A program made the position numbers and the translations under genes. The notes under the pieces were generated by a model. That model saw only the letters and a program-made list of their open reading frames with translations. It was not told the origin of the DNA and did not search any database. Positions 7,632 through 24,033 of a stretch of DNA of 64,000 nucleotides are shown here, one piece after another. Source of the stretch: Wenyingzhuangia sp. 2_MG-2023 (GTDB lineage Bacteria > Bacteroidota > Bacteroidia > Flavobacteriales > Flavobacteriaceae); contig NZ_JAUOSB010000002.1 in NCBI RefSeq assembly GCF_030548295.1, positions 1 through 64,000 of the forward strand. Direction: 5' to 3'. Each line of letters opens with the position of its first letter. Positions within the stretch are counted from its first letter, which is position 1.

Positions 7632-7724
7632 AACCAAAACACACAAAGTCTGGAAACAGAAAATAAGATTGATTGTGGTAAAACAATCAACAAGAGTAGA
7701 GTATAAATTATTAAAACATTCGTT

Positions 7725-8423: not shown

Positions 8424-8434
8424 AAAACCTCCCC

Positions 8435-8470
8435 ACTCAGAGTTTGATAAATTTCAGACTCTGAGTTTTT
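8435..8470 (+). terminator. Rho-independent terminator after pspA
   Basis: Stem actcagagt ... actctgagt followed by TTTTT. Confidence 0.7.
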
Positions 8471-8490
8471 AAAAAAATTGCAAAAGAAAA

Positions 8491-9189
8491 ATGACACTTT
8501 ACGAACTAGTTTTTTCTCCCATAAACACTCCTTTGACGATTTTCTTAATCGCTCTTACCGTTTATAGAATTATCACCACAATTATAGGACTAGATTTTGA
8601 CTTTGATGTAGACATAGATCTAGATATTGATGTAGACATGGATGCTTCTACAGATAGTACCGCTGTAGATTTGGAAGAAATTTCTAATGTAGAACTGAAA
8701 AACGAAACCGTTGTTAGCAACCGAAGAAAGTCTTTAAAATGGTGGCAAGTCTTGCTGATCTATTTCAACTTTACAGAATTGCCCTTTATGTTTACACTAA
8801 CTTCTTGGGTATTTTTCTGGTGGTTCATCACCGTATTGGGAACGTACATTACGTTTAGCCATCACAACGCATTTGGATTCGTCATTTTTGCAGCTGCTAT
8901 CATTCCCTCCTTAATTTTAAACAAAATTTTCACCACTCCTTTCAAAAGTGTATTTAAAAAACTAGAAAGAAAAGGAGTTGATGCCCTTGACCTTTTAGGA
9001 AGAAAAGGAATTTTAGATTCCAATATTTCTGGAGACAGAATGGGTCGCGTAAAAGTAAAGATTGACGATGATCCTATTCTTATCTACGGAAAATCTTTAA
9101 ACGGTGAAGCTTTAAAATCAGGAACAGAAATATTGATTATCAAAGAAGATACAAGCAAAAAATTTTACTACATAAAAAACAACTATTAA
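8491..9189 (+). CDS. NfeD/YqiJ-like membrane protein (flotillin partner)
   Basis: 232 aa. TM helices, an acidic DFDFDVDIDLDIDVDMD repeat, and a C-terminal beta (OB-like) domain. Directly upstream of the flotillin gene, as in E. coli yqiJK. Confidence 0.6.
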   Translation: MTLYELVFSPINTPLTIFLIALTVYRIITTIIGLDFDFDVDIDLDIDVDMDASTDSTAVDLEEISNVELKNETVVSNRRKSLKWWQVLLIYFNFTELPFMFTLTSWVFFWWFITVLGTYITFSHHNAFGFVIFAAAIIPSLILNKIFTTPFKSVFKKLERKGVDALDLLGRKGILDSNISGDRMGRVKVKIDDDPILIYGKSLNGEALKSGTEILIIKEDTSKKFYYIKNNY

Positions 9190-9201
9190 CAAAAAATTAC
9201 T

Positions 9202-11298
9202 ATGAATTTAAGTATCATATCACTAGCATTCTCAGACATTGCGTCTTCTATGGTAGGAATCGCCGTTGGAGGTTTGGCAGGATTAATTTTACTTTTTGTG
9301 CTATTTATAGCCATGTTTTACAAAAAAATACCGCAAGGTGAAGCTATTGTAAAAACAGGGTTTGGAGGCACACAAGTTGCCTTTGACAAAGGAATGTACG
9401 TAATACCTGTTCTACACAAAGTAGAAATTATGGACATTTCTGTAAAAAAAATCAAGGTAGAGCGTATGCTAGAAGATGGTTTGATTTGTAAAGACAATTT
9501 AAGAGCAGACATAAAAGTGGCCTTTTTTGTAAGAGTAAACAAATCCAAAGATGCTATAATAGAAGTTGCACAAACCATTGGTTGTGAAAGAGCTTCTAAC
9601 GAAGAAACTTTGTACGAATTGTTTGAAGCTAAGTTCTCAGAAGCTTTAAAAACAGTAGGTAAAAAGTTCAATTTCATCGATTTGTACGAAGCTCGTAGAG
9701 AGTTTAGAGATGAAATCATCAACATTATTGCTACAGATTTAAACGGATACACACTAGAAGATTGTGCGATTGATTATTTAGAACAAACGCCCATCAAATA
9801 CCTAAAACCAGACAATATTCTAGATTCTGAGGGAATCAAAAAGATTACAGAATTGACGGCAGCACAAAACATCAAAGCCAATTTGATTAGACGTGATGAA
9901 GAAAAAGTGATTCGAAAACAAGATGTAGAAGCCAGAGAAGCCATTCTAGAATTGGACAAACAATTGGCAGAAAAAGAAGAGCAACAAGGTCGTGAAATTG
10001 CCAATATCAAAGCTAGAGAAGCAGCAGAAATAGCAAAAGTATCTCAAGAAGAACGTTTAAAATCTGAATCTGCTAGAATTATTACGGATGAGAAAGTAAA
10101 AATTGCAGAAGAAAATAAAGACCGCCAAATTATAGTAGCCGCTAAAAACAAAGAACGTACAGAAGCTGTAGAAACAGAACGTGTACAAAAAGATAGAGAT
10201 TTAGAAGCTACTGAAAGAATGAAGATTGTTGCCTTGGCAGAAATTGACAAAGAAAAAGCCGTTGAAATAGAACGTAAAAACATTCAAGATGTAATTCGTG
10301 AACGTGTTTCTTTAGAAAAAGGTGTGGTAGAAGAACAAGAAAACACCAAAGATATTGAAGCATTTAAAACGGCAGATCGTGAAAAGAAAGTAGCCATTAC
10401 CTTGGCAGAAAAAGATGCAGAAGCATCCTTAATTACAGTCATCAAAGCTGCCGAAGCACAAAAAGAAGCTTCAAAACAACGAGCAGAAGAAATGAACATT
10501 GATGCACAGGCTAAAAAAGAAGCTTCTACCAAAGAAGCAGAAGCTAGAAAAATTATTGCAGATGCTACTGCCAAAGAAGAAGCAACTATTGGATTGTCTG
10601 AAGCACAAGTATTGCATGCAAAAGCAGATGCTCACGAACGTGAAGGTTTGGTACAAGCTAATATTATAGAAAAAACAGCCTTGGCAGAAGCAGTTGGAAT
10701 TGAAGTACGAGCTGCAGCCATGAAAAAACAAGGGTTGGCAGAAGCAGATATTATTAAAGAAAAAGCACTTGCAGATGCGGCCGGTATTGAAGAGAAAGCA
10801 GAGGCTATGAAAAAACTAGATGGAGTTGGAAAAGAGCACGAAGAATTCAAACTGCGTTTAGACAAAGAATTGCAAGTAGACTTGGCAGAAATCAACATAC
10901 AAAAAGAAATTGCCGATGCACAAGCAGACGTAATTGGAGAAGCTTTGAAAGCTGCTAATATTGATATTGTAGGTGGTGAAACCATGTTCTTTGACCAAAT
11001 AATTGGACAAATTACTCGCTCTAAAGGAATAGACCGCTTGGTAAATCATTCTGCAAACATTACAGAAGTAAAAGATGCCATTTTAGGTTCTAATGACGTA
11101 AAAGGAAATTTGTTAGACAAAGTTAAAAGTTTTGCCACGGATTACGGAATTGGTTCTGAAGACATTAAAAACTTAACCATCTCTAGTTTGTTGTTAAAAC
11201 TACATGGAAAAGCAAGTTCTAACGATGAGAAGAATTTATTCTCTAATCTGACCAATTTGTCCAAAGCATTAGGATTGGGAGATCAGAAGTTGGGTTAA
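9202..11298 (+). CDS. Flotillin / SPFH (band 7) domain protein with a long E/A/K-rich coiled-coil tail
   Basis: 698 aa. N-terminal TM segment, an SPFH domain (EAIVKTGFGG...VIPVLHKVEIMDISV...), then extensive EA-repeat coiled coil as in YqiK/flotillins. Confidence 0.85.
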   Translation: MNLSIISLAFSDIASSMVGIAVGGLAGLILLFVLFIAMFYKKIPQGEAIVKTGFGGTQVAFDKGMYVIPVLHKVEIMDISVKKIKVERMLEDGLICKDNLRADIKVAFFVRVNKSKDAIIEVAQTIGCERASNEETLYELFEAKFSEALKTVGKKFNFIDLYEARREFRDEIINIIATDLNGYTLEDCAIDYLEQTPIKYLKPDNILDSEGIKKITELTAAQNIKANLIRRDEEKVIRKQDVEAREAILELDKQLAEKEEQQGREIANIKAREAAEIAKVSQEERLKSESARIITDEKVKIAEENKDRQIIVAAKNKERTEAVETERVQKDRDLEATERMKIVALAEIDKEKAVEIERKNIQDVIRERVSLEKGVVEEQENTKDIEAFKTADREKKVAITLAEKDAEASLITVIKAAEAQKEASKQRAEEMNIDAQAKKEASTKEAEARKIIADATAKEEATIGLSEAQVLHAKADAHEREGLVQANIIEKTALAEAVGIEVRAAAMKKQGLAEADIIKEKALADAAGIEEKAEAMKKLDGVGKEHEEFKLRLDKELQVDLAEINIQKEIADAQADVIGEALKAANIDIVGGETMFFDQIIGQITRSKGIDRLVNHSANITEVKDAILGSNDVKGNLLDKVKSFATDYGIGSEDIKNLTISSLLLKLHGKASSNDEKNLFSNLTNLSKALGLGDQKLG

Positions 11299-11386
11299 TC
11301 TAACAACTACCCAAGGGGCTTAAGCCCTTTGGGTATCCTGTTGGACAATTCATTAGTTTATTCATTAGTTTTTAACAGATCTAAAG

Positions 11387-11884
11387 ATGCTATATTTAGT
11401 AACATTCACAACTCATAATTCAAGAATTTCCGATAGAATGGTTACTTTTTGCTCTCCAGAATTCATTAAAAATCTAAAGCCTTTTTTATTATTAGACAGC
11501 GATTATCTAAAAATGATTGACTTGGTTGCAGAAGCGATAACAAAATATAAAATAGTTACAATTGCCTTTACAGTAATACCAGATCATGTTCATCTGTTAG
11601 TTGATGTTAAAAATAAGAAAGAATTAAATGAACAAATTCGAAAATTAAAAGGGTTCACCTCCTATCAATTTCAACGATACAAAGAATGGAAAAAAGGAGA
11701 AAATCATGTTTGGTCTCAAAAATTTCACAAAAAAGAGGTCGATTCTGAATTGAACAACATAGCCCGAGTCGTAAATTACATCCATAAAAATACAGAAAAA
11801 CATTACAAAAGATGGGGAAATTTGTTGAATGAATCTAAGCCTCTTCTAAAGAAGCTAAACGAGAAAAACTGTAATCAACTGTAA
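11387..11884 (+). CDS. IS200/IS605-like Y1 (HUH) transposase of the RAYT/TnpA_REP type
   Basis: 165 aa. YLVTFTTHNSR (cf. WFFTVNLRNRR of E. coli RAYT), HUH motif IPDHVHLLV, and a C-terminal WSQKFHKK...VVNYIHKNTEKH with the catalytic Tyr. Confidence 0.8.
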   Translation: MLYLVTFTTHNSRISDRMVTFCSPEFIKNLKPFLLLDSDYLKMIDLVAEAITKYKIVTIAFTVIPDHVHLLVDVKNKKELNEQIRKLKGFTSYQFQRYKEWKKGENHVWSQKFHKKEVDSELNNIARVVNYIHKNTEKHYKRWGNLLNESKPLLKKLNEKNCNQL

Positions 11885-11918
11885 TCAACTGTAATCAACT
11901 GTAATCAACTGTAATCAA
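11869..11918. repeat. 10-bp microsatellite (CTGTAATCAA) x5 overlapping the RAYT stop codon
   Basis: actgtaatca repeated five times in tandem. The RAYT C-terminus (KNCNQL*) is encoded inside it. Confidence 0.9.
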
Positions 11919-12050
11919 TGGGCTTAAGCCCATTGAAATAATTAGCTAGAAAATAACGAAACTACTTCTCCATACACTTTTTTCCGCTACGTTACAAAAA
12001 GCACTCGAAGTGACTCAGGAACTAAATAACAAAACAGGTCTACAATACAA

Positions 12051-15000
12051 ATGAAAAATAACGCTATAGAACTAGAAGGAGGAACGTACGAAATCATTCA
12101 AAATCGTTTGCAAAAGCATAAAAATGATTTGGTGCTGCGTTTACAAACTCTCAACGAAAACAGAAAAGAGGTCTTTGGAGCTGTAGAAACCAAACTGATT
12201 GCCAACGATAGAATCAACACCCAAAATTCATGCATTGCTAGAGATATTGTTTCCTTAGGAAACACCTGTTTGTTAGGGTACAATGTGCATTTTGGACTAC
12301 GATCAGAAATAAAACTGGAAGATGTATTTAGCGTTTACAAATTTCAGAACAATCGCTTTCAATCTCAAGACTTGAGTTTCATCAACCAAGAGGGATTTGT
12401 TTCTGATTTTAAGAACCTTTACAAATATTACCGAAATACCTTTTTCACCAAATTCATGCTTACCGAGCAATACCTACACATGGTGTTTCAGATTGGGGAA
12501 AAAGTTGAAGACATCAAAACATTCAAATGGTTGGTAAAAGACAACCAAATTACCTACATAGACAACCGTAGTGATCACGAATATACGTTTCCAAACCAAC
12601 ACGAATTTAGATGGCAAGAGGTTACTTATGACAACTTTAGAAAAGGAAGTCATCCTCATGTTTCTATTTTAGACAAACTATTTGTAGAAGCTATTGGTGG
12701 TGATTTGACCATAAAAATAGAAGACAATTCTGAAACTGGAAAAGGGATTTATGCAGAACCTGTAGATCACAAAGATCAAACCCTAGAAGATGCAAAATAC
12801 AGATTTGCTGATTTGGGAAATATAACCGTTCTAGAAATTACGCCTTACCAAGAGACGGCTCGTTATTTTGTGTACAATCACAAAGTACAGCAAGTTTCTA
12901 GAATTCAAAGCATACAAGACACCGCTGTATTGTTGCCAGATAGTCAAGGATTGATTTTTCCTGAAGGATATTACTTACAAACAGGAACGTTTAAAAAGTT
13001 TGATCGTGTTGTTCAAAATGTCAAGTTTCAGAAAAAAATAGCTTCTTCCAACGGAGAGGATTATCTCTACGTTTTTTACGAAGAAAAAGAAGGAGATTAT
13101 GTGTTGATGCATTACAACATTATTGAACAAACCATTCACACTCCAATTGTTTGTAATGGGTATACACTTTTGGAAAATGGGGAATTGAGTTATTTCAAAT
13201 CCGAAAGTGAAGCTACCAAACACCATGTGATTCAGATTTGGCAAACTCCTTTTTCTAATAACATACAAGTAAATACAGAAAACAGTGATTCGCTCTTATT
13301 TAAAATAGGAAACAAAGACATTGTAAAAGCAATGGCTGAGTGTCAAGAAATCATCACTTTGTTAAACAAAGAAGACAATTACGATGGTTTGTATGCTGAT
13401 ATTTCCAAACAAAGCACCGATGTTTTGGATGCTTATTTTTGGATTTCAGAACCCGATACTTCTAGCTTAAATGTTCCTTTAGAAGAATTAAAATCTACCG
13501 CCAATGCTGCTATTGGTGAATTTGAAAAAGTAGTACAACTAAAGAAAATTGCGGTTGAAGCTGCCGAAAATTTAGAATCCGAAATTGCTGAACTTTTCAA
13601 CAAAATAAAACACAGTACGTTTACCTCTATTGATGATTTTGTATTGTTATTGACTAATTTAAGAGCTTCACAAGGAAACACCATTGCGCTTAGAGACATC
13701 CGTTACATTAATTTAGAACGTTTGGATGAGGTGAGTGATAGCATTAAAGAACAAACAGAACGTATTTCTAGACGATGTGTTACATTTCTATTGGATGACA
13801 AAGCTTTGATTCCTTATCAAAAAAGGATTCAAGAAAACAATGAAGTTTTAGAAACTTTGACCAAAGTAATTGAAGGGAAAAAACTAGAAAAGAACAGCAA
13901 TCAAATCAGTCACGATTTGGAACTTTTGGTAGATATTGTCAACAATTTGGACATTGAAGACACTTCTCACTCCACTAAAATTATTGACAACATCTCTTTG
14001 TTATTTGCAGAAATTAACCAACTAAAAGCAGGTATCAAAAGAAAAGTTCAAGATCTCAACAACAAAGAAAGTAAAGCCGATTTTGTTGCGCAACTAAAAC
14101 TGTTTGATCAAAGCATCATCAATTTTATAGACATTGCCAACACTCCAGAAAAATGTGACGAATACCTAACCAAACTCTCTGTTCAATTAGAAGAATTGGA
14201 AGGAAAATTTGCCGATTTTGATGAATACATCACCGAAATTATCAGCAAAAGAGAAGAAGTTTACAGTGCCTTTGAAAATAGAAAAACCAGCTTGGTAGCG
14301 GCTCGTAATAAAAAAGGAATTGCGCTACAAAGTGCTGCAGAACGCATTTTAAAAAGCATTCACAAAAAAGCGGCAACGTTTAAAAGTGAAGAAGAAATTC
14401 ACGGTTATTTTGCTTCGGATTTGATGGTGAGCAAATTGCACAACATTGTAACGCAATTGCAAGAACTAGAAGAAACGGGAAAAGCAGAAAGTCTACAAAC
14501 CAATTTAAAAACAACCAAAGAAGAAGTTATTAGAAAACTGAAAGATACTTTGGATTTGTATGAAGATGGTGAAAATGTCATCAAGTTTGGAAACCACCGA
14601 TTTGGAGTTAACAAACAACATTTAGACTTGAATATTGTCAACAAAGATGGTCGGTTGTATTTTCATTTAACGGGTACTGACTTTTACGAACTGATAGAAA
14701 ACAAAATTTTAAACAGTGCTAAAGAAATTTGGGAACAAGAATTGATTTCTGAAAACACCGAAGTTTATAGGTCTGAATATTTGGCTGCTAAAATCTATCA
14801 GAAATATGGTTTGCAAAATTTATCAAACCACACTCCAGAATCTCTGAGTGATTTGGTAAAACAAGAAAGTAACGAAAACTATACGGAAGGTTATGTAAAG
14901 GGAGTGCATGATTTGGATGCATTTGTACTTTTGAAACATTGGATTCAGACTGAAAACGATTTGAAATTACTTAGCTTCCCTCCTAGCATTCGTGCCGAAG

Positions 15001-16868
15001 CTCAATTTTTCTGGCAGGAATTGAACGGTGAAGTTCAAAAAAAATTGAATCAAAAAATAAAAGCTACAGGTGCTATTCTAAATGTATTTCCAAACGCTAC
15101 AGAATACAGCGCTTGTATAGCTGCTATTTTGGAATTGTTACCTCATAAAAATCAACATGTTGCCTATTACTTGTTTCACGAACTAAAACAAAATGATTTG
15201 TTTAGTGTTAGTCAACAAGCTTTGGATTTAAAAACAGACTTTGTTAATTATCTGCAAAGCAACAATGCTTGGCTGTCTTTTGAGCAATCGTTAAACAATT
15301 TCACAGTCCTATCAGACAAAACAGAACTGTGCACACAATGGTTGCAATCTTACTGTAGTAACGAATCAAAACATTCCACCTTTTACATTCAAGAAGCGGT
15401 AGCTTTGTTACTATTCAACAATTCTACCTTGCCTTTGTTTGTAAAAACCAACGTTCCTATCAACAATTTAAAAGGAGATCACGGAACTATTGTAAATGGA
15501 ATTTACACGTTTGAATATTTTAATTTTATTCAAAAATTAAACGATTACAACACGGCCATTGTTGCTAAATTTTTAGCGTTTAGAGAAGCTAAGAAACAAG
15601 TGATTCACCAACAGAAAAACGCTTTAAAACTAAATGAATTCAAACCAAAAGTATTGTCTTCTTTTGTTAGAAATAAATTGATCGATCAGGTCTATTTGCC
15701 TCTGTTTGGAGATAATTTATCCAAACAATTAGGAACGGTTGGAGACAACAAACGTACCGACAGAATGGGAATGTTGTTGTTAATCTCCCCTCCTGGATAT
15801 GGTAAAACTACGTTGATGGAATACATTTCTGAACGATTGGGATTGATCTTTATGAAAATAAACGGACCTGCTATTGGACACGAAATTACTTCTGTAGACC
15901 CTATGGCAGCCACCAACTCAGCCACCAAACAAGAGTTAGAAAAACTGAACTTGGCGTTTGAAATGGGAAACAATGTAATGTTATATTTGGATGATATTCA
16001 ACATTGCAATCCTGAGTTTTTACAGAAATTTATTTCACTGGCCGATGGACAACGTAAAATAGAAGGAGTTTACAAAGGAAACACCAAAACCTACGATTTT
16101 AAAGACAAGAAATTCTGTGTAATTATGGCCGGAAACCCTTATACAGAAAGTGGTGACAAATTTAGAATTCCAGACATGTTGGCCAACAGAGCTGATATTT
16201 ACAACTTGGGAGATGTGATTGGAGAAACTGCTGATTTGTTCAGAATGAGTTTGATTGAAAATGCACTAACCGCTAATGACACTCTTAGACAATTGAGCAG
16301 TAAAAATTTTGACGATTTGTACACTTTGGTAAATCATATAGAACAAAACAGTTCAGAAAGTTTGAACTTGAAAGGAAACCACACCCAACAAGAAATCAAC
16401 GATTATATTTCTGTATTGCAAAAAGTGATTGTTTTGAGAAATACTGTGGTAAAAGTGAACGAGCAATACATAAAATCTGCAGCGATGGAAGATGCTTACA
16501 GAACCGAACCGAGTTTTAAACTACAAGGTTCTTATCGTGATATGGGGAAATTAACAGCCAAAGTAGTACCAATCATGAACGATAAAGAGTTGGATTCTCT
16601 GCTATTAAGTCACTACGAAAGTGAATCACAAACCTTAACCTCAGCAGCCGAAGCCAATTTGTTAAAATACAAAGAAATGACCAAATCTCTGACAGAAGAA
16701 GAAACCGAGCGTTGGGAAAAAATGAAAGAAACCTTTGTAAAAAACAACAAGTTGAAAGGTTTTGGAAATCAGAATGAAATGGCTCAGGTTTTGCAACAAA
16801 TGATGGAGTTCTCTGATAATTTAGAGGGAATTAAAAACGTACTGAAAAATGGATTTGGCAAAAACTAA
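12051..16868 (+). CDS. Giant (1605 aa) cytoplasmic protein with a C-terminal MoxR/AAA_5-type AAA+ ATPase domain; the N-terminal ~1200 aa have no domain I can assign
   Basis: Single uninterrupted 4.8-kb ORF in AT-rich DNA. Walker A ISPPGYGKTTL (near nt 15790), Walker B VMLYLDD, and sensor/arginine region GNPYTESGDKFRIPDMLANRADIY typical of AAA_5/MoxR. The N-terminal third is beta-rich, the middle is long helical/coiled coil, and there is no signal peptide. Confidence 0.6.
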   Translation: MKNNAIELEGGTYEIIQNRLQKHKNDLVLRLQTLNENRKEVFGAVETKLIANDRINTQNSCIARDIVSLGNTCLLGYNVHFGLRSEIKLEDVFSVYKFQNNRFQSQDLSFINQEGFVSDFKNLYKYYRNTFFTKFMLTEQYLHMVFQIGEKVEDIKTFKWLVKDNQITYIDNRSDHEYTFPNQHEFRWQEVTYDNFRKGSHPHVSILDKLFVEAIGGDLTIKIEDNSETGKGIYAEPVDHKDQTLEDAKYRFADLGNITVLEITPYQETARYFVYNHKVQQVSRIQSIQDTAVLLPDSQGLIFPEGYYLQTGTFKKFDRVVQNVKFQKKIASSNGEDYLYVFYEEKEGDYVLMHYNIIEQTIHTPIVCNGYTLLENGELSYFKSESEATKHHVIQIWQTPFSNNIQVNTENSDSLLFKIGNKDIVKAMAECQEIITLLNKEDNYDGLYADISKQSTDVLDAYFWISEPDTSSLNVPLEELKSTANAAIGEFEKVVQLKKIAVEAAENLESEIAELFNKIKHSTFTSIDDFVLLLTNLRASQGNTIALRDIRYINLERLDEVSDSIKEQTERISRRCVTFLLDDKALIPYQKRIQENNEVLETLTKVIEGKKLEKNSNQISHDLELLVDIVNNLDIEDTSHSTKIIDNISLLFAEINQLKAGIKRKVQDLNNKESKADFVAQLKLFDQSIINFIDIANTPEKCDEYLTKLSVQLEELEGKFADFDEYITEIISKREEVYSAFENRKTSLVAARNKKGIALQSAAERILKSIHKKAATFKSEEEIHGYFASDLMVSKLHNIVTQLQELEETGKAESLQTNLKTTKEEVIRKLKDTLDLYEDGENVIKFGNHRFGVNKQHLDLNIVNKDGRLYFHLTGTDFYELIENKILNSAKEIWEQELISENTEVYRSEYLAAKIYQKYGLQNLSNHTPESLSDLVKQESNENYTEGYVKGVHDLDAFVLLKHWIQTENDLKLLSFPPSIRAEAQFFWQELNGEVQKKLNQKIKATGAILNVFPNATEYSACIAAILELLPHKNQHVAYYLFHELKQNDLFSVSQQALDLKTDFVNYLQSNNAWLSFEQSLNNFTVLSDKTELCTQWLQSYCSNESKHSTFYIQEAVALLLFNNSTLPLFVKTNVPINNLKGDHGTIVNGIYTFEYFNFIQKLNDYNTAIVAKFLAFREAKKQVIHQQKNALKLNEFKPKVLSSFVRNKLIDQVYLPLFGDNLSKQLGTVGDNKRTDRMGMLLLISPPGYGKTTLMEYISERLGLIFMKINGPAIGHEITSVDPMAATNSATKQELEKLNLAFEMGNNVMLYLDDIQHCNPEFLQKFISLADGQRKIEGVYKGNTKTYDFKDKKFCVIMAGNPYTESGDKFRIPDMLANRADIYNLGDVIGETADLFRMSLIENALTANDTLRQLSSKNFDDLYTLVNHIEQNSSESLNLKGNHTQQEINDYISVLQKVIVLRNTVVKVNEQYIKSAAMEDAYRTEPSFKLQGSYRDMGKLTAKVVPIMNDKELDSLLLSHYESESQTLTSAAEANLLKYKEMTKSLTEEETERWEKMKETFVKNNKLKGFGNQNEMAQVLQQMMEFSDNLEGIKNVLKNGFGKN

Positions 16869-16883
16869 GAAATAAAAAACACT

Positions 16884-17435
16884 ATGGGAATATTTGACTT
16901 TTTTAAGAAGAAAGAAACCGAAAGACACTTTGATCCTTTGAACATTAAAGTAGCTGATTTGGAAAAAAACTACTTGCTAGATTACCAGTTTGAAACTTGG
17001 ACTGTAGCTGCTATGTTTGAATACGACTGGGGAAATAATTATTTTACCCGAGAGTATACGTTGGTCAACGGCAAAAAAAAGAAATATTTAGAAATAGAAG
17101 ACGATGGAGGTATTATTTTAACAATGTCTGAAGGTCTAAAATTGAGAAAATTAGGAGACGATGTAACCGATCATATAGACCGTAACAACGAGCCGCCTAA
17201 AAAAATTGTTTACGAAGGTGTACTTTACTACTTAGATGAAAAGAGTCCAGGTTACAGCAGAAATGTAGACAATGAAAATTGGGAAGAGTTGATTTCCTTT
17301 GATTATCTTGACGATGAAGAAGAAAAAACCTTGTGCATTACCCAATATGGGGAGCATGAATTTGAAGCTTGTAGAGGAATCATTATTAAAGAAAGAGACA
17401 TTAGCAATATATTGCCCTCACAACAAGATAATTAA
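16884..17435 (+). CDS. DUF4178-like cytoplasmic protein (tentative)
   Basis: 183 aa, acidic, beta-rich (YQFETWTVAAMFEYDWGNNYF...LEIEDDGGIIL). Lies 15 bp after the giant gene. Its size and its position next to DUF350 and a spermidine-synthase-like gene fit DUF4178 neighbourhoods. Confidence 0.35.
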   Translation: MGIFDFFKKKETERHFDPLNIKVADLEKNYLLDYQFETWTVAAMFEYDWGNNYFTREYTLVNGKKKKYLEIEDDGGIILTMSEGLKLRKLGDDVTDHIDRNNEPPKKIVYEGVLYYLDEKSPGYSRNVDNENWEELISFDYLDDEEEKTLCITQYGEHEFEACRGIIIKERDISNILPSQQDN

Positions 17436-17457
17436 TTAAATTTGAAAAAAATCAACT

Positions 17458-18255
17458 ATGAAGTTTTTTAAAACCTTTAGCATTCTGCTCATCACCCTAA
17501 TAGTCGTTTCTTGTGGCTCTGAGAAAAAACCGTACGTAAAATCTCCTTTAGATGTAATTGTAACAACGTACATAGACCAGCAAAATTATAGCGTGATTCT
17601 GGCTGACATGAATTACGAAGAAAGCAACGATTCCTATTTTCACAAATATCGAATTGTAATTCCTAAAACAGCCACTCCTACAGGTTCTGAAAACGATTTT
17701 GAAATCATCAACACCGATTGGAAAAAAGTTTCTCTTCTTGTGTTTGAGCAGCATCAAAACGATTTAGGAATGACGGTACTTTCTAAAAAAAATGGCGTTT
17801 TAGACAAAAAAACAGCTCCTGCAGGTTATGACAATTATGTAGGGAACAAAAAATACGGACAATGGCAAACTAGCTCTAACGGAACATCATTTTGGGCATT
17901 TTACGGTCAATATGCGTTCATGCGTTCTATGTTAGGATGGGGATCTGGATACCGATACTACCGAGATGATTACAATTATTACAACAGCTACAGAGGTCGT
18001 CAAAACTACTATGGTAGAAACAATTCATTTGGAACCAACAACTACAAAAGCAACACTTCTACTTGGGCAAACAAACCACAAAGCTTTAAACAAAAAGTAC
18101 AAAGCAAAGTAAAAAAGAGTGCTGCTACTCTTAAATCAAAATCGTATTCTTCGGGAAGTAGTTATGGAAATAGCTCTCAAAAAACGACCAGAAGTACCAG
18201 TAGATACAGCAACAGTTCGTCTTCTAGATCTCGCAGTGGAGGATTTGGAAAATAA
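17458..18255 (+). CDS. Lipoprotein with a low-complexity Y/N/S/R/G-rich C-terminal tail
   Basis: 265 aa. Lipobox LIVVSCGS. The C-terminal ~130 aa are YRYYRDDYNYYNSYRGRQNYYGRNNSFGTNNY...SSSSRSRSGGFGK. May correspond to YjfM/DUF1190-type lipoproteins (inference). Confidence 0.45.
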   Translation: MKFFKTFSILLITLIVVSCGSEKKPYVKSPLDVIVTTYIDQQNYSVILADMNYEESNDSYFHKYRIVIPKTATPTGSENDFEIINTDWKKVSLLVFEQHQNDLGMTVLSKKNGVLDKKTAPAGYDNYVGNKKYGQWQTSSNGTSFWAFYGQYAFMRSMLGWGSGYRYYRDDYNYYNSYRGRQNYYGRNNSFGTNNYKSNTSTWANKPQSFKQKVQSKVKKSAATLKSKSYSSGSSYGNSSQKTTRSTSRYSNSSSSRSRSGGFGK

Positions 18256-18284
18256 CACAAACAACAACGTTAAAAAACATTGAC

Positions 18285-19154
18285 ATGAACGAATATATTG
18301 ATTTTACCGAATTGTTAAACTCCGGAGGGTACGTACTTACTGGATTGCTGATATTCATCCTTGGAAAAATCCTTTTCAAATTAACGCACTCCAAAATCAA
18401 CATTCAACATGAATTGGTAGAAAAAGACAATTTTGCTTTTATCATTTCTTATGTAGGTTATTTTGTAGGATTGCTCATTACTATTGGAGGTAGTATTGTG
18501 GGAGAAAGTTATGGTTTTTGGATAGACATAGAACATATTTTTATTTATGGAATTCTTTCCATTCTCTTGCTTCAAGTTTCTTCATTTTTAGGAAACAAAC
18601 TCATCTTGCCTAAGTTTGATTTGAAAAAAGAAATTATTGAGGATCAAAATGAAGGTACTGGAATTATTGAAGCCATCATCTACATTGTAAACGGATTGAT
18701 TTTATACGGTGCTTTGTTGGGAGAATCGGAAACGTTAACTGAGGGAATCCTAACTTTTGTGGTGTATTGGGCAATTGGAAATGTAATGTTGATCATCACT
18801 TCTAAAATTTACACTCTTTGGCTGAATTACAACATTCACCAAGAAATAGAAAAAGACAATGTAGCTGCAGGAATTGCATTTTCAGGTGCTATTTTGGCTA
18901 TTGGAATCATTATTATGAATGCGTTGATTGCTCCTTTTATAGATTGGACAACTACTTTGGTTGATGTTTCTGTGCAAATGGTGGTTGCTTCTTTATTGTT
19001 GCCAATCATGCGTTTTTTTGCCGACAACATTCTTTTGCCAGGACAAAAATTAACGGATGAAATTGTGAATCAAGAAAAACCAAATTTAGGTGCAGGATTG
19101 GTAGAGGCTTTTGCTTACGCAGGATCTGCAGTTTTGATTTCTTGGTGCTTTTAA
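18285..19154 (+). CDS. DUF350 (YjfL-like) inner-membrane protein, tandem DUF350 repeats
   Basis: 289 aa, about 8 TM helices. The motif ...NVAAGIAFSGAILAIGIIIMNALIAP... matches E. coli YjfL NTAASLAFSGTLLG...; a second copy is at ...NEGTGIIEAIIYIVNGLILYGALL. Confidence 0.7.
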   Translation: MNEYIDFTELLNSGGYVLTGLLIFILGKILFKLTHSKINIQHELVEKDNFAFIISYVGYFVGLLITIGGSIVGESYGFWIDIEHIFIYGILSILLLQVSSFLGNKLILPKFDLKKEIIEDQNEGTGIIEAIIYIVNGLILYGALLGESETLTEGILTFVVYWAIGNVMLIITSKIYTLWLNYNIHQEIEKDNVAAGIAFSGAILAIGIIIMNALIAPFIDWTTTLVDVSVQMVVASLLLPIMRFFADNILLPGQKLTDEIVNQEKPNLGAGLVEAFAYAGSAVLISWCF

Positions 19155-19316
19155 TTTGATCAATTGTTGATTTATTTGCATCTCTTAAATTATTTAAAAT
19201 ACACAGCACTGTTCTTTACTATTTTACCCCCTATTTTGATACTGACACATAAAGTAGAAAATGGAATAAAGTAACGAGAGAATTCATTATACAAAACAGC
19301 TAAAAGCATTAAAAAA

Positions 19317-20864
19317 TTGAACTTTCTTAAAAAAAATTCATTCGTACTAAAAGCAGCAATTTTTGCTACAGGATTTGCAGGTATTGTAGCAGAGTATATC
19401 TTATCTACACTAGCTACTTATTTTATAGGAAACTCCATTTTTCAATGGACTATGATTGTTTCCTTAATGCTTTTTTGCATGGGATTGGGAAGCCGATTGA
19501 GTAAAATGATTACCAAAAATTTAATTCAGAATTTTCTACTTCTAGAAGCTTCTTTGTCTATTTTAGTCGCTTTCTCATCTGTTTTGGTCTACACATTGGC
19601 CTCTTTTACAGAACTATATACAGCAGTTATTTACTTATTGAGTATGATGATTGGATTGCTAATTGGATTGGAAATTCCACTTGTGGTTAGAATCAATAAG
19701 GAATACGAAGATTTAAAAAGCAACATTTCTTCTATTTTAGAAAAAGACTATTACGGTAGTTTGTTGGGTGGAGTCTTTTTTGCTTTTATTGGTTTGCCCA
19801 TTTTAGGATTGACCTATACTCCTTTTGTGCTGGGAATCATCAACTTTTTAGTAGCTTTGATTGTTTTGTTCCGTTTTAAAGACAAAATAAAAAACGCCCC
19901 ATTTGTAAAAATGCAACTTATTTTAGGAACCGTATTTGTCATTATTATTGGAGGAGTATTTGTAACGCAACCCATCATTCAGTGGGGAGAACAAAAAAAA
20001 TACAAAGACAAAGTAATATTATCTGAACAAACCAAATACCAAAAAATTGTATTGACCGAATGGAAAAATGAAAATTGGCTGTACTTAAACGGAAACTTAC
20101 AATTCTGTTCTATTGATGAAAAAATGTACCACGAACCTTTGGTGCATCCTATCATGAACTTGCATCAACATCCGCAAAAAATCCTAATTTTAGGAGGTGG
20201 TGACGGTTGTGCTGTTCGTGAAATTTTAAAATATCCTTCTGTAGAAAAAATAGATTTGGTGGATTTGGACCCTAAAATGACTGATTTAGGAAAAAACCAT
20301 CCTGTATTGCTAAAAAACAATTTAGGAAGCCTAAACTCCAAAAAAGTGACCATTTACAACCAAGATGCCTACATTTATTTGGAACAAAACAACACGGATT
20401 TTTACGACATTATAATATCCGATTTGCCCGATCCTAGAAACATAGAATTGGGAAGATTGTATTCCCGTGAATTTTACACGCTTTGTTACCGAAAATTAAG
20501 ACCCAATGGTTTGATAATTACCCAAGCCGGAAGTCCTTATTTTGCCACCAAAGCGTACCAATGTATAGACAAAACTATTACCGCCAGTGGTTTTACTACA
20601 GCAAAACTACACAACCAAGTATTGTCTATGGGAGAATGGGGTTGGATTTTAGGAAGCAAACAATCCATAGATAAAAAGATGTTAAAGCAACGTTTGCAGT
20701 CTTTGCATTTTAAAAACACAAACTGGATCAACCATGAAGCAATGTTGCTCATTACTTCTTTTGGAAAAGATTTTTATAAAGTAAAAGACAGCGTTGGAGT
20801 AAACGAAGTACACAATCCTGTTTTGTACAATTATTATTTAAAAGGAAATTGGGATCTTTATTAA
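19317..20864 (+). CDS. Polyamine aminopropyltransferase (spermidine-synthase family) fused to an N-terminal multi-TM domain
   Basis: 515 aa. The C-terminal domain has ILILGGGDGCAVREIL...VDLVDLDP...DIIISDLPDP (SAM/dcSAM-binding Rossmann fold, SpeE-type). The N-terminus has about 7 TM helices. The only in-frame start before the conserved first TM is TTG at 19317, with no upstream ATG, so the start is uncertain. Confidence 0.75.
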   Translation: MNFLKKNSFVLKAAIFATGFAGIVAEYILSTLATYFIGNSIFQWTMIVSLMLFCMGLGSRLSKMITKNLIQNFLLLEASLSILVAFSSVLVYTLASFTELYTAVIYLLSMMIGLLIGLEIPLVVRINKEYEDLKSNISSILEKDYYGSLLGGVFFAFIGLPILGLTYTPFVLGIINFLVALIVLFRFKDKIKNAPFVKMQLILGTVFVIIIGGVFVTQPIIQWGEQKKYKDKVILSEQTKYQKIVLTEWKNENWLYLNGNLQFCSIDEKMYHEPLVHPIMNLHQHPQKILILGGGDGCAVREILKYPSVEKIDLVDLDPKMTDLGKNHPVLLKNNLGSLNSKKVTIYNQDAYIYLEQNNTDFYDIIISDLPDPRNIELGRLYSREFYTLCYRKLRPNGLIITQAGSPYFATKAYQCIDKTITASGFTTAKLHNQVLSMGEWGWILGSKQSIDKKMLKQRLQSLHFKNTNWINHEAMLLITSFGKDFYKVKDSVGVNEVHNPVLYNYYLKGNWDLY

Positions 20865-20866
20865 AA

Positions 20867-21115
20867 ATGGTCATCGAGCGAAGTCGAGATGCAATTAAAA
20901 ACAATGAATTCAACTATTAAAAAGTAGAAATAACATCAATAAAACCATCATTAAAAAATGATCATTGAGCGGAGTCGAGATGCAATTAAAAACAATGAAT
21001 TCAACTTATAAAAAGTAGAAACAACATCAACAAAACCATCATTTAAAATGGTCATCGAGCGGAGTCGAGATGCAATTACAAACAATGAATTCAACTTATA
21101 AAAAAATAGAAGCTA
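20867..21115 (+). repeat. ~90-bp tandem repeat (about 2.7 copies) duplicating the speH RBS/start region; copies 1 and 2 encode stop-truncated 12-codon mini-ORFs
   Basis: Units start at 20867, 20958 and 21048. Each contains ATGCAATTA[A/C]AAACAATGAATTCAACT.. Copies 1-2 read MQLKTMNST[I/Y]KK then TAG. Copy 3 reads through into speH. Confidence 0.85.
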
Positions 21116-21387
21116 GCATTTACAATCACCAATTTTGGACAGATTGTACAGACCCTACTGCCTTAAAAAAAACATACGAAACATTGTTAAAAAAAGCAGG
21201 TTTCACCATTTTACTTTTTAACGAACACCATTTTCCAGAGCAAGGTTATACCTGTTTTTGGTTGTTGGGAGAAAGTCATTTGGCCATACATACTTTTCCA
21301 GAAAGCAATAAAAGTTATGTAGAATTGAGCAGTTGTAACAAAGAAAAACTAGAGGTATTTAAGCTTAAAAACAATAAAATCTCATGA
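21085..21387 (+). CDS. speH: S-adenosylmethionine decarboxylase proenzyme (pyruvoyl-dependent, SpeH-like small form)
   Basis: ESHLAIHTFPE autoprocessing/active-site motif and an N-terminal ..NHQFWTDC (cf. HxxxELWGCD). The alternative upstream ATG at 21070 lies inside the repeat. Confidence 0.75.
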   Translation: MNSTYKKIEASIYNHQFWTDCTDPTALKKTYETLLKKAGFTILLFNEHHFPEQGYTCFWLLGESHLAIHTFPESNKSYVELSSCNKEKLEVFKLKNNKIS

Positions 21388-22154
21388 AAAAAAAAGTAAG
21401 CAATTTCATCAATTACAATCCTTATTTTATTCAATTTATATATACGCTGATTGTACTAAATGTCTGTGCGCTTATTTTAGAATCTTACGACGAACTCCGC
21501 CAACACTATTCTTTTTTCTTTCATGCATTTGAAGTCTTTTCTGTAGCCATCTTTACTTTAGAATATTTTATCCGTATTTGGATTTCGGACAAAACCAAAG
21601 AAGACAAAAGAGAACGCATCAACTTTGCGTTTTCTACCATGGGAATTATAGATTTGATTGCCATTCTGCCTTTTTATTTGCCTTTTATTTTTCCTTTTGA
21701 TTTGAGAGTTCTCCGTATTCTTCGTTTGTTTCGTCTGTTGCGAATTTTCAAATTAGGACGTTATTCCAAATCCTTAAAAACCATTCGATACATTTTTAAA
21801 GAAACCAAAGCAGAATTGTCCATTACCGTATTTGTTACTTTTGTGTTGATGATCCTTTCTTCTACTTTGATGTATTACATAGAGCATGACGATCAACCAG
21901 AACAATTTGGTAGCATAGGAGATGCTTTTTGGTGGTCTGTAGCAACACTTACAACGGTAGGTTATGGAGATGTGTTTCCTGTAACTGCATGGGGAAAATT
22001 GTTGAGCGGAATTATTGCCCTTATCGGAATTGGTTTTGTGGCACTTCCTACAGGAATTATCAGTTCTGCTTTTATAGAAAAAATACAAAACGATAAAAAG
22101 AAACACCCCAATCAAACATGTAACTGTCCGCATTGTGGTAAAAAAATAGAGTAA
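21384..22154 (+). CDS. Voltage-gated-type (6TM) potassium channel
   Basis: 256 aa. S4 with spaced arginines RVLRILRLFRLLRIFKLGR, pore helix and selectivity filter TTVGYGD, and a C-terminal CNCPHC. The start ATG overlaps the speH stop (ATGA). Confidence 0.85.
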   Translation: MKKKVSNFINYNPYFIQFIYTLIVLNVCALILESYDELRQHYSFFFHAFEVFSVAIFTLEYFIRIWISDKTKEDKRERINFAFSTMGIIDLIAILPFYLPFIFPFDLRVLRILRLFRLLRIFKLGRYSKSLKTIRYIFKETKAELSITVFVTFVLMILSSTLMYYIEHDDQPEQFGSIGDAFWWSVATLTTVGYGDVFPVTAWGKLLSGIIALIGIGFVALPTGIISSAFIEKIQNDKKKHPNQTCNCPHCGKKIE

Positions 22155-22157
22155 ACT

Positions 22158-22700
22158 ATGGCACACGCAAAAAACATCTTTTTATTTGTTGGTTTTTTAT
22201 ACTTTGTATACGTTTTAGACCTTGTAATTCCGTTATCTCGCTACGGAATTGTTCCCAGAACGCAACGGGGTTTGATAGGGATTGTTAGTTGTCCTTTTTT
22301 GCATGCCAACCTAAGACACTTGGTTTCTAACACCGTTCCGTTGACTATTTTGTTGTTTGTGCTTTATTCTTTTTACCCTAACAAAGCCATGAGTGTGGTG
22401 GTAATTTCTATTGTTTTGGGCGGAATTTTAGTCTGGCTTTTTGGACGAAATGCCAACCATATTGGTGCCAGCGGATTGATTTACGGATTGGTTGCTTTTT
22501 TAATTGTGAATGGTTTTACCGAGCAAAAATTTGTACCTATACTTATTTCTATTGCTGTAGCCGTAGTTTACGGAAGTCTTTTCTGGGGTATTTTTCCCTC
22601 TTACCGCACCTATGTTTCTTGGGAAGGACATTTGTTTGGAGCTGTAGCTGGTTTTGCAGCTGTGTTTTTGTTAAAAGGACTCAAAAATACAATTGTGTAA
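22158..22700 (+). CDS. Rhomboid family intramembrane serine protease (short form)
   Basis: 180 aa, 6 TM helices. Catalytic GASGLIYGL and a downstream His in WEGHLFGAVAGF. Confidence 0.7.
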   Translation: MAHAKNIFLFVGFLYFVYVLDLVIPLSRYGIVPRTQRGLIGIVSCPFLHANLRHLVSNTVPLTILLFVLYSFYPNKAMSVVVISIVLGGILVWLFGRNANHIGASGLIYGLVAFLIVNGFTEQKFVPILISIAVAVVYGSLFWGIFPSYRTYVSWEGHLFGAVAGFAAVFLLKGLKNTIV

Positions 22701-22725
22701 CTTCGTAAGAAAAAATTGCTGTGTT

Positions 22726-24003
22726 ATGGAGAAGAAATATTTTGCCTCTGAGTTCTTAAATAAGAGTGGTATAAAGGATATGGTTAATATAAATCCTAAA
22801 ACCGAAACTCCTTGTAATGTATTCTGGGATATTACTTTTGACCAAATAAAAAATTGCTCTAGCTTAAATTTCCAACTATGTAGGTTTGATCGTATTGATT
22901 TTTCTATTTTAAAAAATTTATCCTCTAGAACTAGTATAAGCTTTCATAAATGCGAGTTTTTATCATTTTGTGACATTAAATTCAATGAAATAGATAGTTT
23001 AAACATCACCGATTGTAGTTTTAGAAAAAAAGATATAGCAGTAATAATATCTGGGAAAATTCATGAAATTACAATAAAAAACAATGAAAAAATCAAATCA
23101 CCAGGATACAATTTCATGGGGATTGAATGTCTTACATTATCTATAGAAAATATTAATTCTGATAATTCACTTAATTTCACACATAACAACAATATTGTAA
23201 ATAGACAATTAAAGATATCTGACTCTTCTTTTAGTGACATAAATTTTAATCAACTAGAACTCAATGGACGAGTAATAATTGAAAAAACTAATAACGATGT
23301 GGGTTTTGATTTTAATACTTGTGAATTTAGTCTCAATCATTGTATATTTAACAAACAAATAACTATTGAAGACAACAATTTCTCTTCTATAAAAATAGAT
23401 GAAACTTTTTTCTATGGTATAAGTTCATTTCAAAACAACACTGTTAAAAGCATAAAATTTAAAAATTCTCATTTTATGTCACGGGTTTATTTTGATGACC
23501 TCTCCGTTAAAGAGATTACCAAATGTGACAGAAAAACCATCAGAACCATCAAACAAGAGTTGCAAAAAACTGAAAACCGAATAGACTACGATACGTTTAG
23601 AAGTTACGAGTTGGAATTGTACAAAAATGACTTAGTTAAAAAAGAAAAATGGTGGCATTTTAAAGACTTATTTATTTTATCATTAAATAGCTTATTTTCT
23701 AAACATGGAATTAGTTGGAGAAGAGCCATTGGGATGACTGTGTTATTTAGTCTTGGTTTTTACACCGTCCTATACATCATTAAAAACCTCCATAATGATT
23801 TTAATATTACATTAAACGGTTTTAATCATTTTACAAGCGGTTACTTCAAATTCTTTTTAATCACCAACTTTTACGACCCTTTGTCAGAAAACAGAGAATA
23901 CTTGAAATACTTTGGGGAATGGCTTCCTTTTATTTTTGGAAAAATAGTAATTGGTTACGGTTTGTACGAAACCGTTCAATCTTTTAGAAAGTACAAAAAG
24001 TAA
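22726..24003 (+). CDS. Hypothetical protein with an N-terminal irregular ~20-residue beta-helix/pentapeptide-like repeat region and C-terminal TM helices
   Basis: The ORF track starts at 22693 with a non-ATG codon; the first ATG is at 22726 (MEKKYF...). Repeats of the form F..C.F....I.F / NNNF, and a C-terminal hydrophobic region (AIGMTVLFSLGFYTVLYII..., FLITNFY..., WLPFIFGKIVIGYGL). Very AT-rich codon usage. Confidence 0.4.
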   Translation: MEKKYFASEFLNKSGIKDMVNINPKTETPCNVFWDITFDQIKNCSSLNFQLCRFDRIDFSILKNLSSRTSISFHKCEFLSFCDIKFNEIDSLNITDCSFRKKDIAVIISGKIHEITIKNNEKIKSPGYNFMGIECLTLSIENINSDNSLNFTHNNNIVNRQLKISDSSFSDINFNQLELNGRVIIEKTNNDVGFDFNTCEFSLNHCIFNKQITIEDNNFSSIKIDETFFYGISSFQNNTVKSIKFKNSHFMSRVYFDDLSVKEITKCDRKTIRTIKQELQKTENRIDYDTFRSYELELYKNDLVKKEKWWHFKDLFILSLNSLFSKHGISWRRAIGMTVLFSLGFYTVLYIIKNLHNDFNITLNGFNHFTSGYFKFFLITNFYDPLSENREYLKYFGEWLPFIFGKIVIGYGLYETVQSFRKYKK

Positions 24004-24033
24004 CTTGTTTGCTACCAGACAATGTTTAAACAC

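Follow-up and report, generated by a model that had tools for sequence, protein, structure and literature searches.

Positions 1 to 64,000 of contig NZ_JAUOSB010000002.1 from Wenyingzhuangia sp. 2_MG-2023 (assembly GCF_030548295.1; this 64,000-nucleotide stretch is called the window below) contain a 4.8-kb open reading frame (ORF) coding for a giant AAA+ ATPase of 1605 amino acids (aa). The gene stands between a flotillin/NfeD/PspA block on its upstream side and a module of DUF4178, lipoprotein, DUF350 and polyamine genes on its downstream side. The question raised by this locus is with which of these neighbours the ATPase belongs, and what it might do with them. Comparison of related loci pointed upstream: the conserved genetic unit is a triad formed by a short NfeD-like (YqiJ/YuaF-like) membrane protein, a long flotillin and the ATPase. 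The feature is real and biologically coherent, and it belongs to a family that has been described computationally and hardly touched experimentally.

Conserved partners of the ATPase

Coordinates were taken from the ORF table and the translations of the window, and the proteins of the block were scanned with Pfam, NCBIfam and PADLOC-DB 2.0. The part of the block that ends with the ATPase gene contains the following genes.

6301-7032, minus strand: divergent regulator with a Cro/C1-type helix-turn-helix (HTH) domain (HTH_3, E=2.7e-10) and a weak S24-peptidase-like C-terminal domain (Peptidase_S24, E=0.0017, under the Pfam cutoff)
7236-7631, plus strand: CesT/Tir-like chaperone, a YjfI-type PspA partner (PF22550 CesT_Tir_1, E=2.7e-58)
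7725-8423, plus strand: PspA/IM30, bacterial ESCRT-III-like (PF04012, E=2.4e-40)
8491-9189, plus strand: YqiJ/YuaF-type short NfeD-like membrane protein, 232 aa (sequence and hydropathy)
9202-11298, plus strand: long flotillin, 698 aa, with an N-terminal transmembrane segment, SPFH/Band-7 domain (Band_7, E=2.8e-10), coiled coil and flotillin C-terminal region
12051-16868, plus strand: giant soluble DUF3686-DUF7902-AAA+ ATPase, 1605 aa (ORF table, motifs, Pfam)

The NfeD-like protein had no Pfam or NCBIfam match, and its putative YqiJ/YuaF class was read from architecture and position: sequence and hydropathy revealed an N-terminal transmembrane segment, an acidic DxDxD linker, a second transmembrane segment and a C-terminal beta domain. 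There was also no NCBIfam family model for the ATPase, the flotillin or the DUF4178, lipoprotein and DUF350 proteins.

Neighbourhoods were compared in 80 Flavobacteriaceae loci and in 9 loci outside Bacteroidota, the latter from Acidobacteriota, Myxococcota, Planctomycetota, Halopseudomonas, Vibrio, Streptomyces and three metagenomic or unnamed assemblies. A flotillin gene was found upstream of the ATPase gene in 86/86 loci with enough flank, representing at least six phyla. Among the flavobacterial loci a flotillin homolog was present in 77 of the 80, and the other three end short upstream, which gives 77/77 for loci with enough flank. Homologs of the NfeD-like protein (76/80), PspA (69/80), CesT (68/80) and the divergent regulator (67/80) were also frequent. 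Eight flavobacterial loci with full upstream flank lacked CesT, and all eight keep the NfeD-like, flotillin and ATPase genes; six of them (L010, L013, L014, L045, L063 and L072) have neither CesT nor PspA and keep the triad.

The loci outside Bacteroidota gave the same picture. In all nine, a gene for a protein of 208-262 aa and a gene for a protein of 615-781 aa precede the ATPase gene. The longer one, which lies directly upstream of the ATPase gene, encodes a homolog of the window flotillin in 9/9 loci (E=4e-24 to 7.6e-230). The shorter one matched the NfeD-like protein of the window in five of the nine (phmmer, E=2.7e-21 to 7.1e-05), and in the other four it has, as judged by eye, the layout of transmembrane segment, acidic linker, transmembrane segment and NfeD-like beta domain. 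The CesT-PspA pair was missing from the ATPase operon in all nine loci. Because the triad is kept where CesT-PspA is missing, the triad is the conserved unit, and CesT-PspA is a frequent addition to it, present under a divergent HTH regulator in most Flavobacteriaceae including the window.

The original prediction took the locus for the likeliest place of an undescribed system and the downstream genes for operon partners of the ATPase. The conserved partners lie upstream, and both the exact operon, listed for Dokdonia, and the polyamine module, as a second group, were described from comparative genomics by Ravi et al. 2024 (mSystems, PMC11237479). In Dokdonia donghaensis (ANH61663.1) a divergent gene for a cHTH-protease protein is followed by genes for CesT_Tir, PspA, YqiJ/YuaF, a Band-7 flotillin and a protein with beta-propeller, coiled coil and AAA domains (PMC11237479, Table S3). 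The window shares with this operon the gene order, the divergent regulator and the bacterial family, and the Dokdonia loci of our sample (L012 and L019) have the identical order. It differs by the group-2 polyamine module downstream and by an IS200-like insertion between the flotillin and ATPase genes. Shortened flotillin-YqiJ/YuaF-(AAA+) operons occur more widely, and a link of the operon to stress was also concluded, by comparative genomics (PMC11237479). That study contains neither a structure-based class for the ATPase nor experiments.

What the present analysis adds is a structure-based MoxR/dynein class for the motor, the recognition of flotillin and NfeD as the invariant partners in place of PspA or the polyamine genes, a correction of the name 'DNA repair ATPase', and a probable link to the Pseudomonas aeruginosa bac operon, for which mutants exist. 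The window itself is a clean example and little more. The family bears on the question of how the assembly and disassembly of flotillin scaffolds and PspA polymers are controlled in bacteria. The ATPase is an obvious candidate for scaffold control because it is large, strongly conserved and tied to flotillin in every locus inspected with enough flank.

Experimental work on the system comes only from its probable counterpart bacABCDEF of P. aeruginosa (PMC10948618, PMC13086221), the 'biofilm-associated cluster' PA3732-PA3727 (PMC10948618). BacA, for which a crystal structure exists, resembles YjfI/CesT; BacB corresponds to PspA, BacC to a short NfeD protein and BacD to the flotillin PaFlo3 (PMC10948618, PMC13086221). 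All six genes are co-transcribed, and the Bac proteins rise jointly in a bacA mutant (PMC10948618). Mutants in bacA and bacB have defects in biofilm formation, in the secretion of rhamnolipids, in swarming and in virulence (PMC10948618, PMC13086221). PA14_16190 (BacE) is annotated as 'ATPase involved in DNA repair' (PMC8855297), and PA3728 is listed as 'ATPase'. The bac cluster thus resembles the window in uniting a CesT-like chaperone, PspA, a short NfeD protein, a flotillin and an annotated ATPase. It differs in being sigma-54 dependent and in having a sixth gene, bacF, with no counterpart in the window, and the mutants behind its phenotypes are those of bacA and bacB, not of the ATPase gene. 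We regard it as probably the studied counterpart, a link made through the published annotations: a profile search built around the proteobacterial members recovered Vibrio, Pseudoalteromonas, Halopseudomonas and Reinekea, among others, and had no P. aeruginosa entry among its best 120 matches.

The ATPase family is large, with more than 4,600 homologs at E<1e-5 as a lower bound. The propeller domain alone recovered 698 clusters at 50% identity, 236 of them at E<=1e-30. Full-length members are consistently 1600-2000 aa long, and among the full-length matches listed PF12458 and PF25472 were present in all and an AAA family in nearly all. Named members come from Flavobacteriaceae, Acidobacteriota, Planctomycetota, Myxococcota, Bradymonadales and Armatimonadota, from Gammaproteobacteria (Vibrio, Pseudoalteromonas, Reinekea, Halopseudomonas) and from Actinobacteria (Streptomyces, Saccharothrix, Actinoplanes). 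The closest named relative among the matches listed is from Wenyingzhuangia sp. (83% identity). Database names of the homologs are 'DNA repair ATPase', 'AAA family ATPase' and 'MoxR-like ATPase'. A full-text literature search for 'DUF3686' returned nothing, and a search on operons combining flotillin, AAA ATPase and beta-propeller found only the Psp phylogenomics work.

Several family members carry a PilZ domain (PF07238; P0437, P0488, P0490, P0493, P0496, P0500, P0503, P0505, P0507 and the member at locus L088). This suggests an input from cyclic di-GMP (c-di-GMP) in some lineages, in line with the effects of the bac cluster on biofilms in P. aeruginosa.

Architecture and class of the motor

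An AlphaFold2 model was obtained for aa 1-1190 of the ATPase with 61 sequences (mean pLDDT 84.4). Together with Pfam and the translation it predicts the following parts.

aa 12-42: N-terminal helix (AlphaFold2 model)
12192-13244, plus strand (aa 48-398): beta-propeller inside DUF3686 (AlphaFold2 model, Foldseek)
13293-14558, plus strand (aa 415-836): long helical arm with single helices of up to 58 residues, including DUF7902 (Pfam, AlphaFold2 model)
14577-15500, plus strand: small beta module (aa 843-881), helical domain (aa 907-1122) and short beta element (aa 1134-1155) (AlphaFold2 model)
15768-16250, plus strand: AAA+ core with a candidate pre-sensor-1 beta-hairpin
16251-16865, plus strand: helical lid and C-terminal tail with the invariant motif F.LQGSYR.M (aa 1489-1498)

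The original prediction had found no assignable motif in the N-terminal ~1200 aa, but two families match there: PF12458 (DUF3686) covers aa 27-463 with 596.1 bits against a cutoff of 25 (E=4.5e-179, full profile coverage), and PF25472 (DUF7902) covers aa 584-667 with 79.7 bits against 26 (E=1.9e-22). The C-terminal AAA+ module was recognized by AAA_5 (30.6 bits, cutoff 22) and AAA (26.4 bits, cutoff 21.2). A hydropathy scan of the protein found no transmembrane-like segment, in agreement with the predicted cytoplasmic location.

Foldseek aligned aa 48-398 best with PDB propellers, those of the DCAF1 WDR domain, Sec12, Vps18, prolyl-oligopeptidase and YncE, at 7-11% identity. Long alignments of low TM-score were also obtained with propeller-plus-solenoid proteins (IFT-A, Elp1, Nup), and these reflect architectural resemblance of the model only. 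The Foldseek search of the 1190-residue model was dominated by the propeller and gave no class for the helical arm, the small beta module or the domain at aa 907-1122; searched against PDB sequences, the helical arm had coiled-coil-type matches only. PDB sequence searches with the single protein and with a 32-sequence profile found P-loop-level matches (RuvB, Cdc48, Rix7) and no relative with a solved structure.

All motifs named in the original prediction are present in the translation at aa 1246-1384: Walker A SPPGYGKTT (aa 1246-1254), Walker B MLYLDD (aa 1310-1315) and NPYTESG..RIP..NRADIY (aa 1362-1384). They had been placed within the C-terminal ~150 residues; in fact they lie 220-360 residues from the C-terminus and are followed by ~220 conserved residues of the lid and tail. 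Sensor 1 is N1362 and the candidate Arg finger R1380. In the aligned homologs Walker A, D1314-D1315-I-Q-H, the sensor-1 motif M-x-G-N-P-Y-T, R1380 and F-x-x-Q-G-S-Y-R-x-M (aa 1489-1498) are invariant; the GSYR-containing motif appears to resemble a sensor-2 motif. Across 32 representatives (28-47% identity) the core is by far the best-conserved part, with a median identity to the window ATPase of 63%, compared with 37% for the propeller and 19%, the lowest value, for aa 961-1190.

A distinctive feature of the core is that Walker B reads LYLDD, not DE, with D1314-D1315 invariant in 32 as well as in 61 aligned sequences. Replacement of the Walker B Glu by Asp in AAA+ enzymes points to slow hydrolysis or switch-like behaviour. 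The DD of the window protein (15990-15995) may therefore confer a slow, switch-like ATP turnover. The segment LYLDDIQH presumably resembles the 'DDIQ' Walker B of DnaA-type proteins.

Comparison of the AAA+ module, modelled with good confidence, with known folds placed the motor in the MoxR/AAA_5 (dynein-related) class, as had been proposed from the motifs. On this model the nearest folds were those of the MoxR proteins NorQ (comparison figure 16.1) and CbbQ (15.9), followed by dynein (12.4-13.7) and midasin (12.9), with other clades at 12.5 or less. As far as secondary structure goes, alpha3 and beta4 of the model flank a hairpin (model residues 186-199), the GSYR motif is preceded by a long helix (296-328), and the helix-2 region forms an unstructured loop of lower confidence. 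The ATPase differs from NorQ and CbbQ in several respects: identity is 11-15%, Walker B ends in DD instead of DE, there are ~1200 extra N-terminal and ~200 extra C-terminal residues, and the VWA partners of those enzymes (NorD and CbbO) have no equivalent in the window. No VWA domain was found in the genes spanning 4721-24003 or in the neighbours annotated by Pfam at loci L081-L091.

Membership in the Vps4/classical AAA clade was considered and rejected. The protein does not combine a classical fold, free of the pre-sensor-1 hairpin, with an N-terminal MIT domain.

A possible scaffold remodeller and the alternatives

With a probability of roughly 0.6, we think that the ATPase uses ATP to remodel the membrane-stress scaffold of flotillin and NfeD (and PspA), a reading by analogy that takes in the triad and the docked polyamine module. 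The MoxR-class motor, joined to the propeller through ~800 residues of helical arm and helical domain, would oligomerise into a ring, like MoxR proteins. The propeller heads would dock on the cytoplasmic face of the flotillin/NfeD scaffold, or on PspA, and nucleotide-driven movement would run along the helical arm. ATP binding and slow hydrolysis, the latter proposed because Walker B is invariably DD, would then assemble, reshape or dismantle flotillin and/or PspA polymers during membrane stress.

As working analogies, HflK/C-FtsH, the MoxR-VWA remodellers, and dynein or midasin, in which a ring is combined with a remote binding head, come closest. In outline the pairing would be that of an SPFH cage and an AAA+ ATPase, as in HflK/C-FtsH. 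As in HflK/C-FtsH and the NfeD-stomatin pairs, an SPFH scaffold gene is here linked genetically with an AAA+ ATPase and an NfeD protein, a combination that hints at a membrane-microdomain machine. FtsH, however, is a membrane-anchored member of the classical AAA clade with a protease domain, whereas the window ATPase is soluble, of MoxR class and without protease domain, so that the likeness is one of analogy, not homology. With Vps4/ESCRT-III the system shares the linkage, in most flavobacterial loci, of an AAA+ ATPase to PspA, a member of the ESCRT-III superfamily, and a Vps4-like role has already been proposed for PspA-linked AAA+ proteins. According to a 2025 review a Vps4-like ATPase is apparently absent from bacterial PspA systems (PMC7619361); the ATPase may supply the ATP-driven step that these ESCRT-III-like systems are thought to lack.

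Several points weigh against a scaffold remodeller. The proposed mechanism rests wholly on gene order, fold and analogy. MoxR ATPases normally pair with a VWA-domain partner, and none is encoded at the locus. The Glu to Asp change of Walker B in every member may indicate a nucleotide switch rather than a motor. The spacer between the flotillin and ATPase genes varies from 92 to 2375 bp in Flavobacteriaceae and often contains inserted genes, therefore translational coupling of the two is not required. Flotillin deletions in P. aeruginosa, that of paFlo3 included, had no pronounced phenotype (PMC13086221). Finally, the assignment of BacE/PA3728 to the DUF3686 proteins is no more than probable, being based on annotation.

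A more far-reaching version of the remodeller seems doubtful to us. In it a ring of MoxR motors would grip the flotillin/NfeD cage, and PspA where present, with its arms and propellers, and would assemble or strip it, as a counterpart of Vps4 for ESCRT-III and of FtsH in HflK/C with a dynein/midasin-like design. A broader circuit, linking ion leak, c-di-GMP and polyamines with membrane repair, would be marked by the recurrent neighbours: K+ channel, rhomboid, DUF350, genes of polyamine synthesis, and the PilZ fusions.

The alternative that survives best, plausible though unlikely, makes the flotillin/NfeD scaffold a platform only. The ATPase would act on client membrane proteins within flotillin microdomains as a protease-free unfoldase or extractor, in the manner of FtsH within HflK/C or of those MoxR chaperones by which particular complexes are matured. 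No conserved candidate client is found beside the triad, the genes downstream being heterogeneous, and a VWA adaptor is not encoded.

A different set of partners is suggested by the genes that follow the ATPase in the window.

16884-17435, plus strand: DUF4178 beta-rich cytoplasmic protein, 183 aa (PF13785, 52.4 bits)
17458-18255, plus strand: lipoprotein with a low-complexity Y/N/S/G-rich tail, 265 aa (lipobox VVSC and composition; no Pfam family)
18285-19154, plus strand: tandem DUF350 (YjfL-type) protein, 289 aa, with eight transmembrane-like segments (PF03994, 172 bits in two stretches; hydropathy)
19317-20864, plus strand: 7TM-fused spermidine synthase, SpeE (PRK03612, 568.7 bits against a cutoff of 472)
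21070-21387, plus strand: small S-adenosylmethionine (AdoMet) decarboxylase, SpeD (AdoMet_dc, E=1.4e-15)
21384-22154, plus strand: ion-transport channel (Ion_trans family match)
22158-22700, plus strand: rhomboid

On this view the ATPase would work chiefly with the DUF4178 protein, the lipoprotein, the DUF350 protein and the membrane spermidine synthase as a polyamine-linked membrane machine, which we consider improbable. The 4.8-kb ORF and the three small genes are arranged as the original prediction described them (12051-16868, 16884-17435, 17458-18255, 18285-19154), on the same strand with gaps of 15, 22 and 29 bp, and Pfam, lipobox and hydropathy agree with the assignment of the small genes; no plus-strand terminator was predicted between the four genes. 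The adjacency recurs in six flavobacterial loci and, loosely, in Wenyingzhuangia. In Halopseudomonas a yjfI-pspA-Ion_trans_2-DUF2491-DUF350-DUF1190-GSP_synth operon lies back to back with rhomboid, NfeD, flotillin and ATPase genes, therefore some functional relationship of the two modules is likely.

Conservation of the neighbourhood, named in the original prediction as a check, held for flotillin in every locus with enough flank, for the NfeD-like gene in nearly all and usually for PspA and CesT, but not for DUF4178 and DUF350. The DUF4178-lipoprotein-DUF350-SpeE-SpeD module follows the ATPase in 6 of the 73 flavobacterial loci with at least 2.5 kb of downstream flank, the lipoprotein, SpeE and SpeD each accompanying DUF4178 in 6/6; the other 67 have unrelated genes there, and the module is missing from the ATPase operon in 9/9 loci outside Bacteroidota. 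The tight spacing of the window is not kept in Wenyingzhuangia, the nearest genus, where two unrelated genes intervene between ATPase and DUF4178. The module also stands alone with its own CesT-PspA in Shewanella. An obligate partnership of the ATPase and the polyamine module is thus largely refuted: the module is an accessory neighbour and a rare addition.

Ravi et al. 2024 assign such genes to group 2, in which CesT/Tir-PspA is associated with 7TM-spermine synthase, YjfL/DUF350, the Ctha_1186 lipoprotein and DUF4178 (PMC11237479). The group-2 operons of Shewanella (SO_3765: lipoprotein-YjfL-7TM spermine synthase-CesT-PspA-DUF4178-RHH) and E. coli (yjfIJKLMC) share DUF4178, lipoprotein, DUF350 and the 7TM-spermidine synthase with the window; the window lipoprotein matches their 'Ctha_1186' lipoprotein in position and architecture. 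The window module differs in having no CesT-PspA dyad or RHH gene of its own, in gene order, in the addition of the small AdoMet decarboxylase and in following the ATPase. The only CesT-PspA dyad of the block (7236-8423) lies upstream of the triad, not inside the polyamine module. The window thus merges group 1 and group 2 around a single CesT-PspA dyad. The module is a separate PspA-associated unit that in this lineage has docked beside the triad and probably shares the same dyad.

Still less probable is an anti-phage or conflict system, an idea also raised in the original prediction. Infection would then be sensed by a membrane-associated NTPase, which would set off abortive infection at the membrane by way of the SPFH/PspA scaffold. 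PA3728-PA3732, the probable P. aeruginosa homologs, were up-regulated in all phage-infected samples (PMC12041424), the Vibrio locus lies near HipA, TelA and RNA-ligase genes, and a large NTPase with a repeat-domain, sensor-like head would suit such a role. Phage induction, however, is defining behaviour of ordinary Psp stress responses. PADLOC matches of the block were limited to P-loop, coiled coil and methyltransferase fold (ATPase E=0.0078 over 29 residues), there was no relative in 2.9 million viral contigs, and the block contains no effector domain (nuclease, pore-former or NADase). In the Flavobacteriaceae genera sampled, the locus occurs almost everywhere with its synteny kept, and its distribution is not patchy.

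A role as DNA-repair ATPase is hardly credible. It has in its favour only the names given by Pfam and NCBI and weak matches to the P-loop of RuvB. The RuvB equivalogs scored 17.8-20.9 bits against cutoffs of 282-299, and their matches span ~45 residues at Walker A. Neither Pfam nor the secondary structure and best fold matches of the models revealed a nuclease domain or one for DNA binding, and in each phylum of the sample the genes conserved beside the ATPase encode membrane proteins. We found no support for the name 'DNA repair ATPase', which for the DUF3686-DUF7902-AAA+ family is unfounded and misleading.

Insertions and other genes at the locus

The original prediction was right in naming the flotillin/NfeD/PspA block and the membrane-fused spermidine synthase as flanks of the ATPase and its small downstream genes, but it passed over a transposase gene in the flotillin-ATPase spacer.

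11308-11936, plus strand: IS200/IS605-like unit with GGGCTTAAGCCC-centred palindromes at both ends
11387-11884, plus strand: Y1 transposase gene inside this unit (Y1_Tnp, E=5.7e-14; REP_Tyr_transpos, 56.6 bits, under the cutoff of 80)

The GGGCTTAAGCCC palindromes, at 11308-11335 and 11915-11936, bracket the transposase gene, and a tandem run of the 10-nt unit AACTGTAATC occupies 11867-11918. The possibility that the element is part of a dispersed REP system was rejected: within the window the palindrome occurs only at the element's own two ends. The IS200-like gene was found in none of the 80 related loci; a metagenomic contig with 99% identity (L091) has it.

The spacer seems to be a hot spot for insertions. 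Elsewhere in Flavobacteriaceae it contains genes for three types of protein: one of 83-105 aa with a C-terminal transmembrane segment in 15 loci, one of 116-120 aa with a hydrophobic segment at its N-terminus in 8 loci, and a GIY-YIG-like one in 6 loci; loci with spacer genes include L001, L005, L006, L008, L009, L015, L024 and L030. None of the three types is present in the window, where the small transmembrane-protein ORF of the 15 loci was searched for and not found.

In the divergent regulator (6301-7032) the sequence VVDDLVM occupies what we take to be the place of the Ser nucleophile motif of LexA-type proteins. The regulator may thus be a non-cleaving relative of these proteins. A sigma-70 scan, which does not cover Bacteroidota promoters, was uninformative (59 sites against 56 expected), and an Rfam scan of 6000-24500 found no RNA family.

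Ion-channel (Ion_trans/Ion_trans_2) and rhomboid genes recur near the system in lineages far apart (window 21384-22700; L086 2768-5987; L088 4583-5059; L090 22127-23448). In the window and in Wenyingzhuangia they follow SpeE-SpeD. In Halopseudomonas the channel gene lies within the yjfI-pspA operon and the rhomboid gene two genes upstream of the flotillin gene, and for a PilZ-fused member the channel gene is directly upstream of the NfeD-like gene. The recurrence is possibly due to chance, because both genes are absent from the other flavobacterial loci with the polyamine module.

The triad of Vibrio chagasii (L089, 3022-6232 and 14191-17303) lies amid RNA-ligase, HD/AAA_33, R2K ATP-grasp, HipA toxin and TelA genes. 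This context looks like a variable island, unlike the stable context of the flavobacterial loci.

In Wenyingzhuangia sp. (L090) genes for a biotin/lipoyl-domain protein, a DUF2059 protein and a 979-aa DUF2339 membrane protein are inserted between the flotillin and ATPase genes (5740-9914), and the two genes between the ATPase gene and DUF4178 (14805-16270) include one that is UCP032817-like. These extra genes may be lineage-specific additions to the same system.

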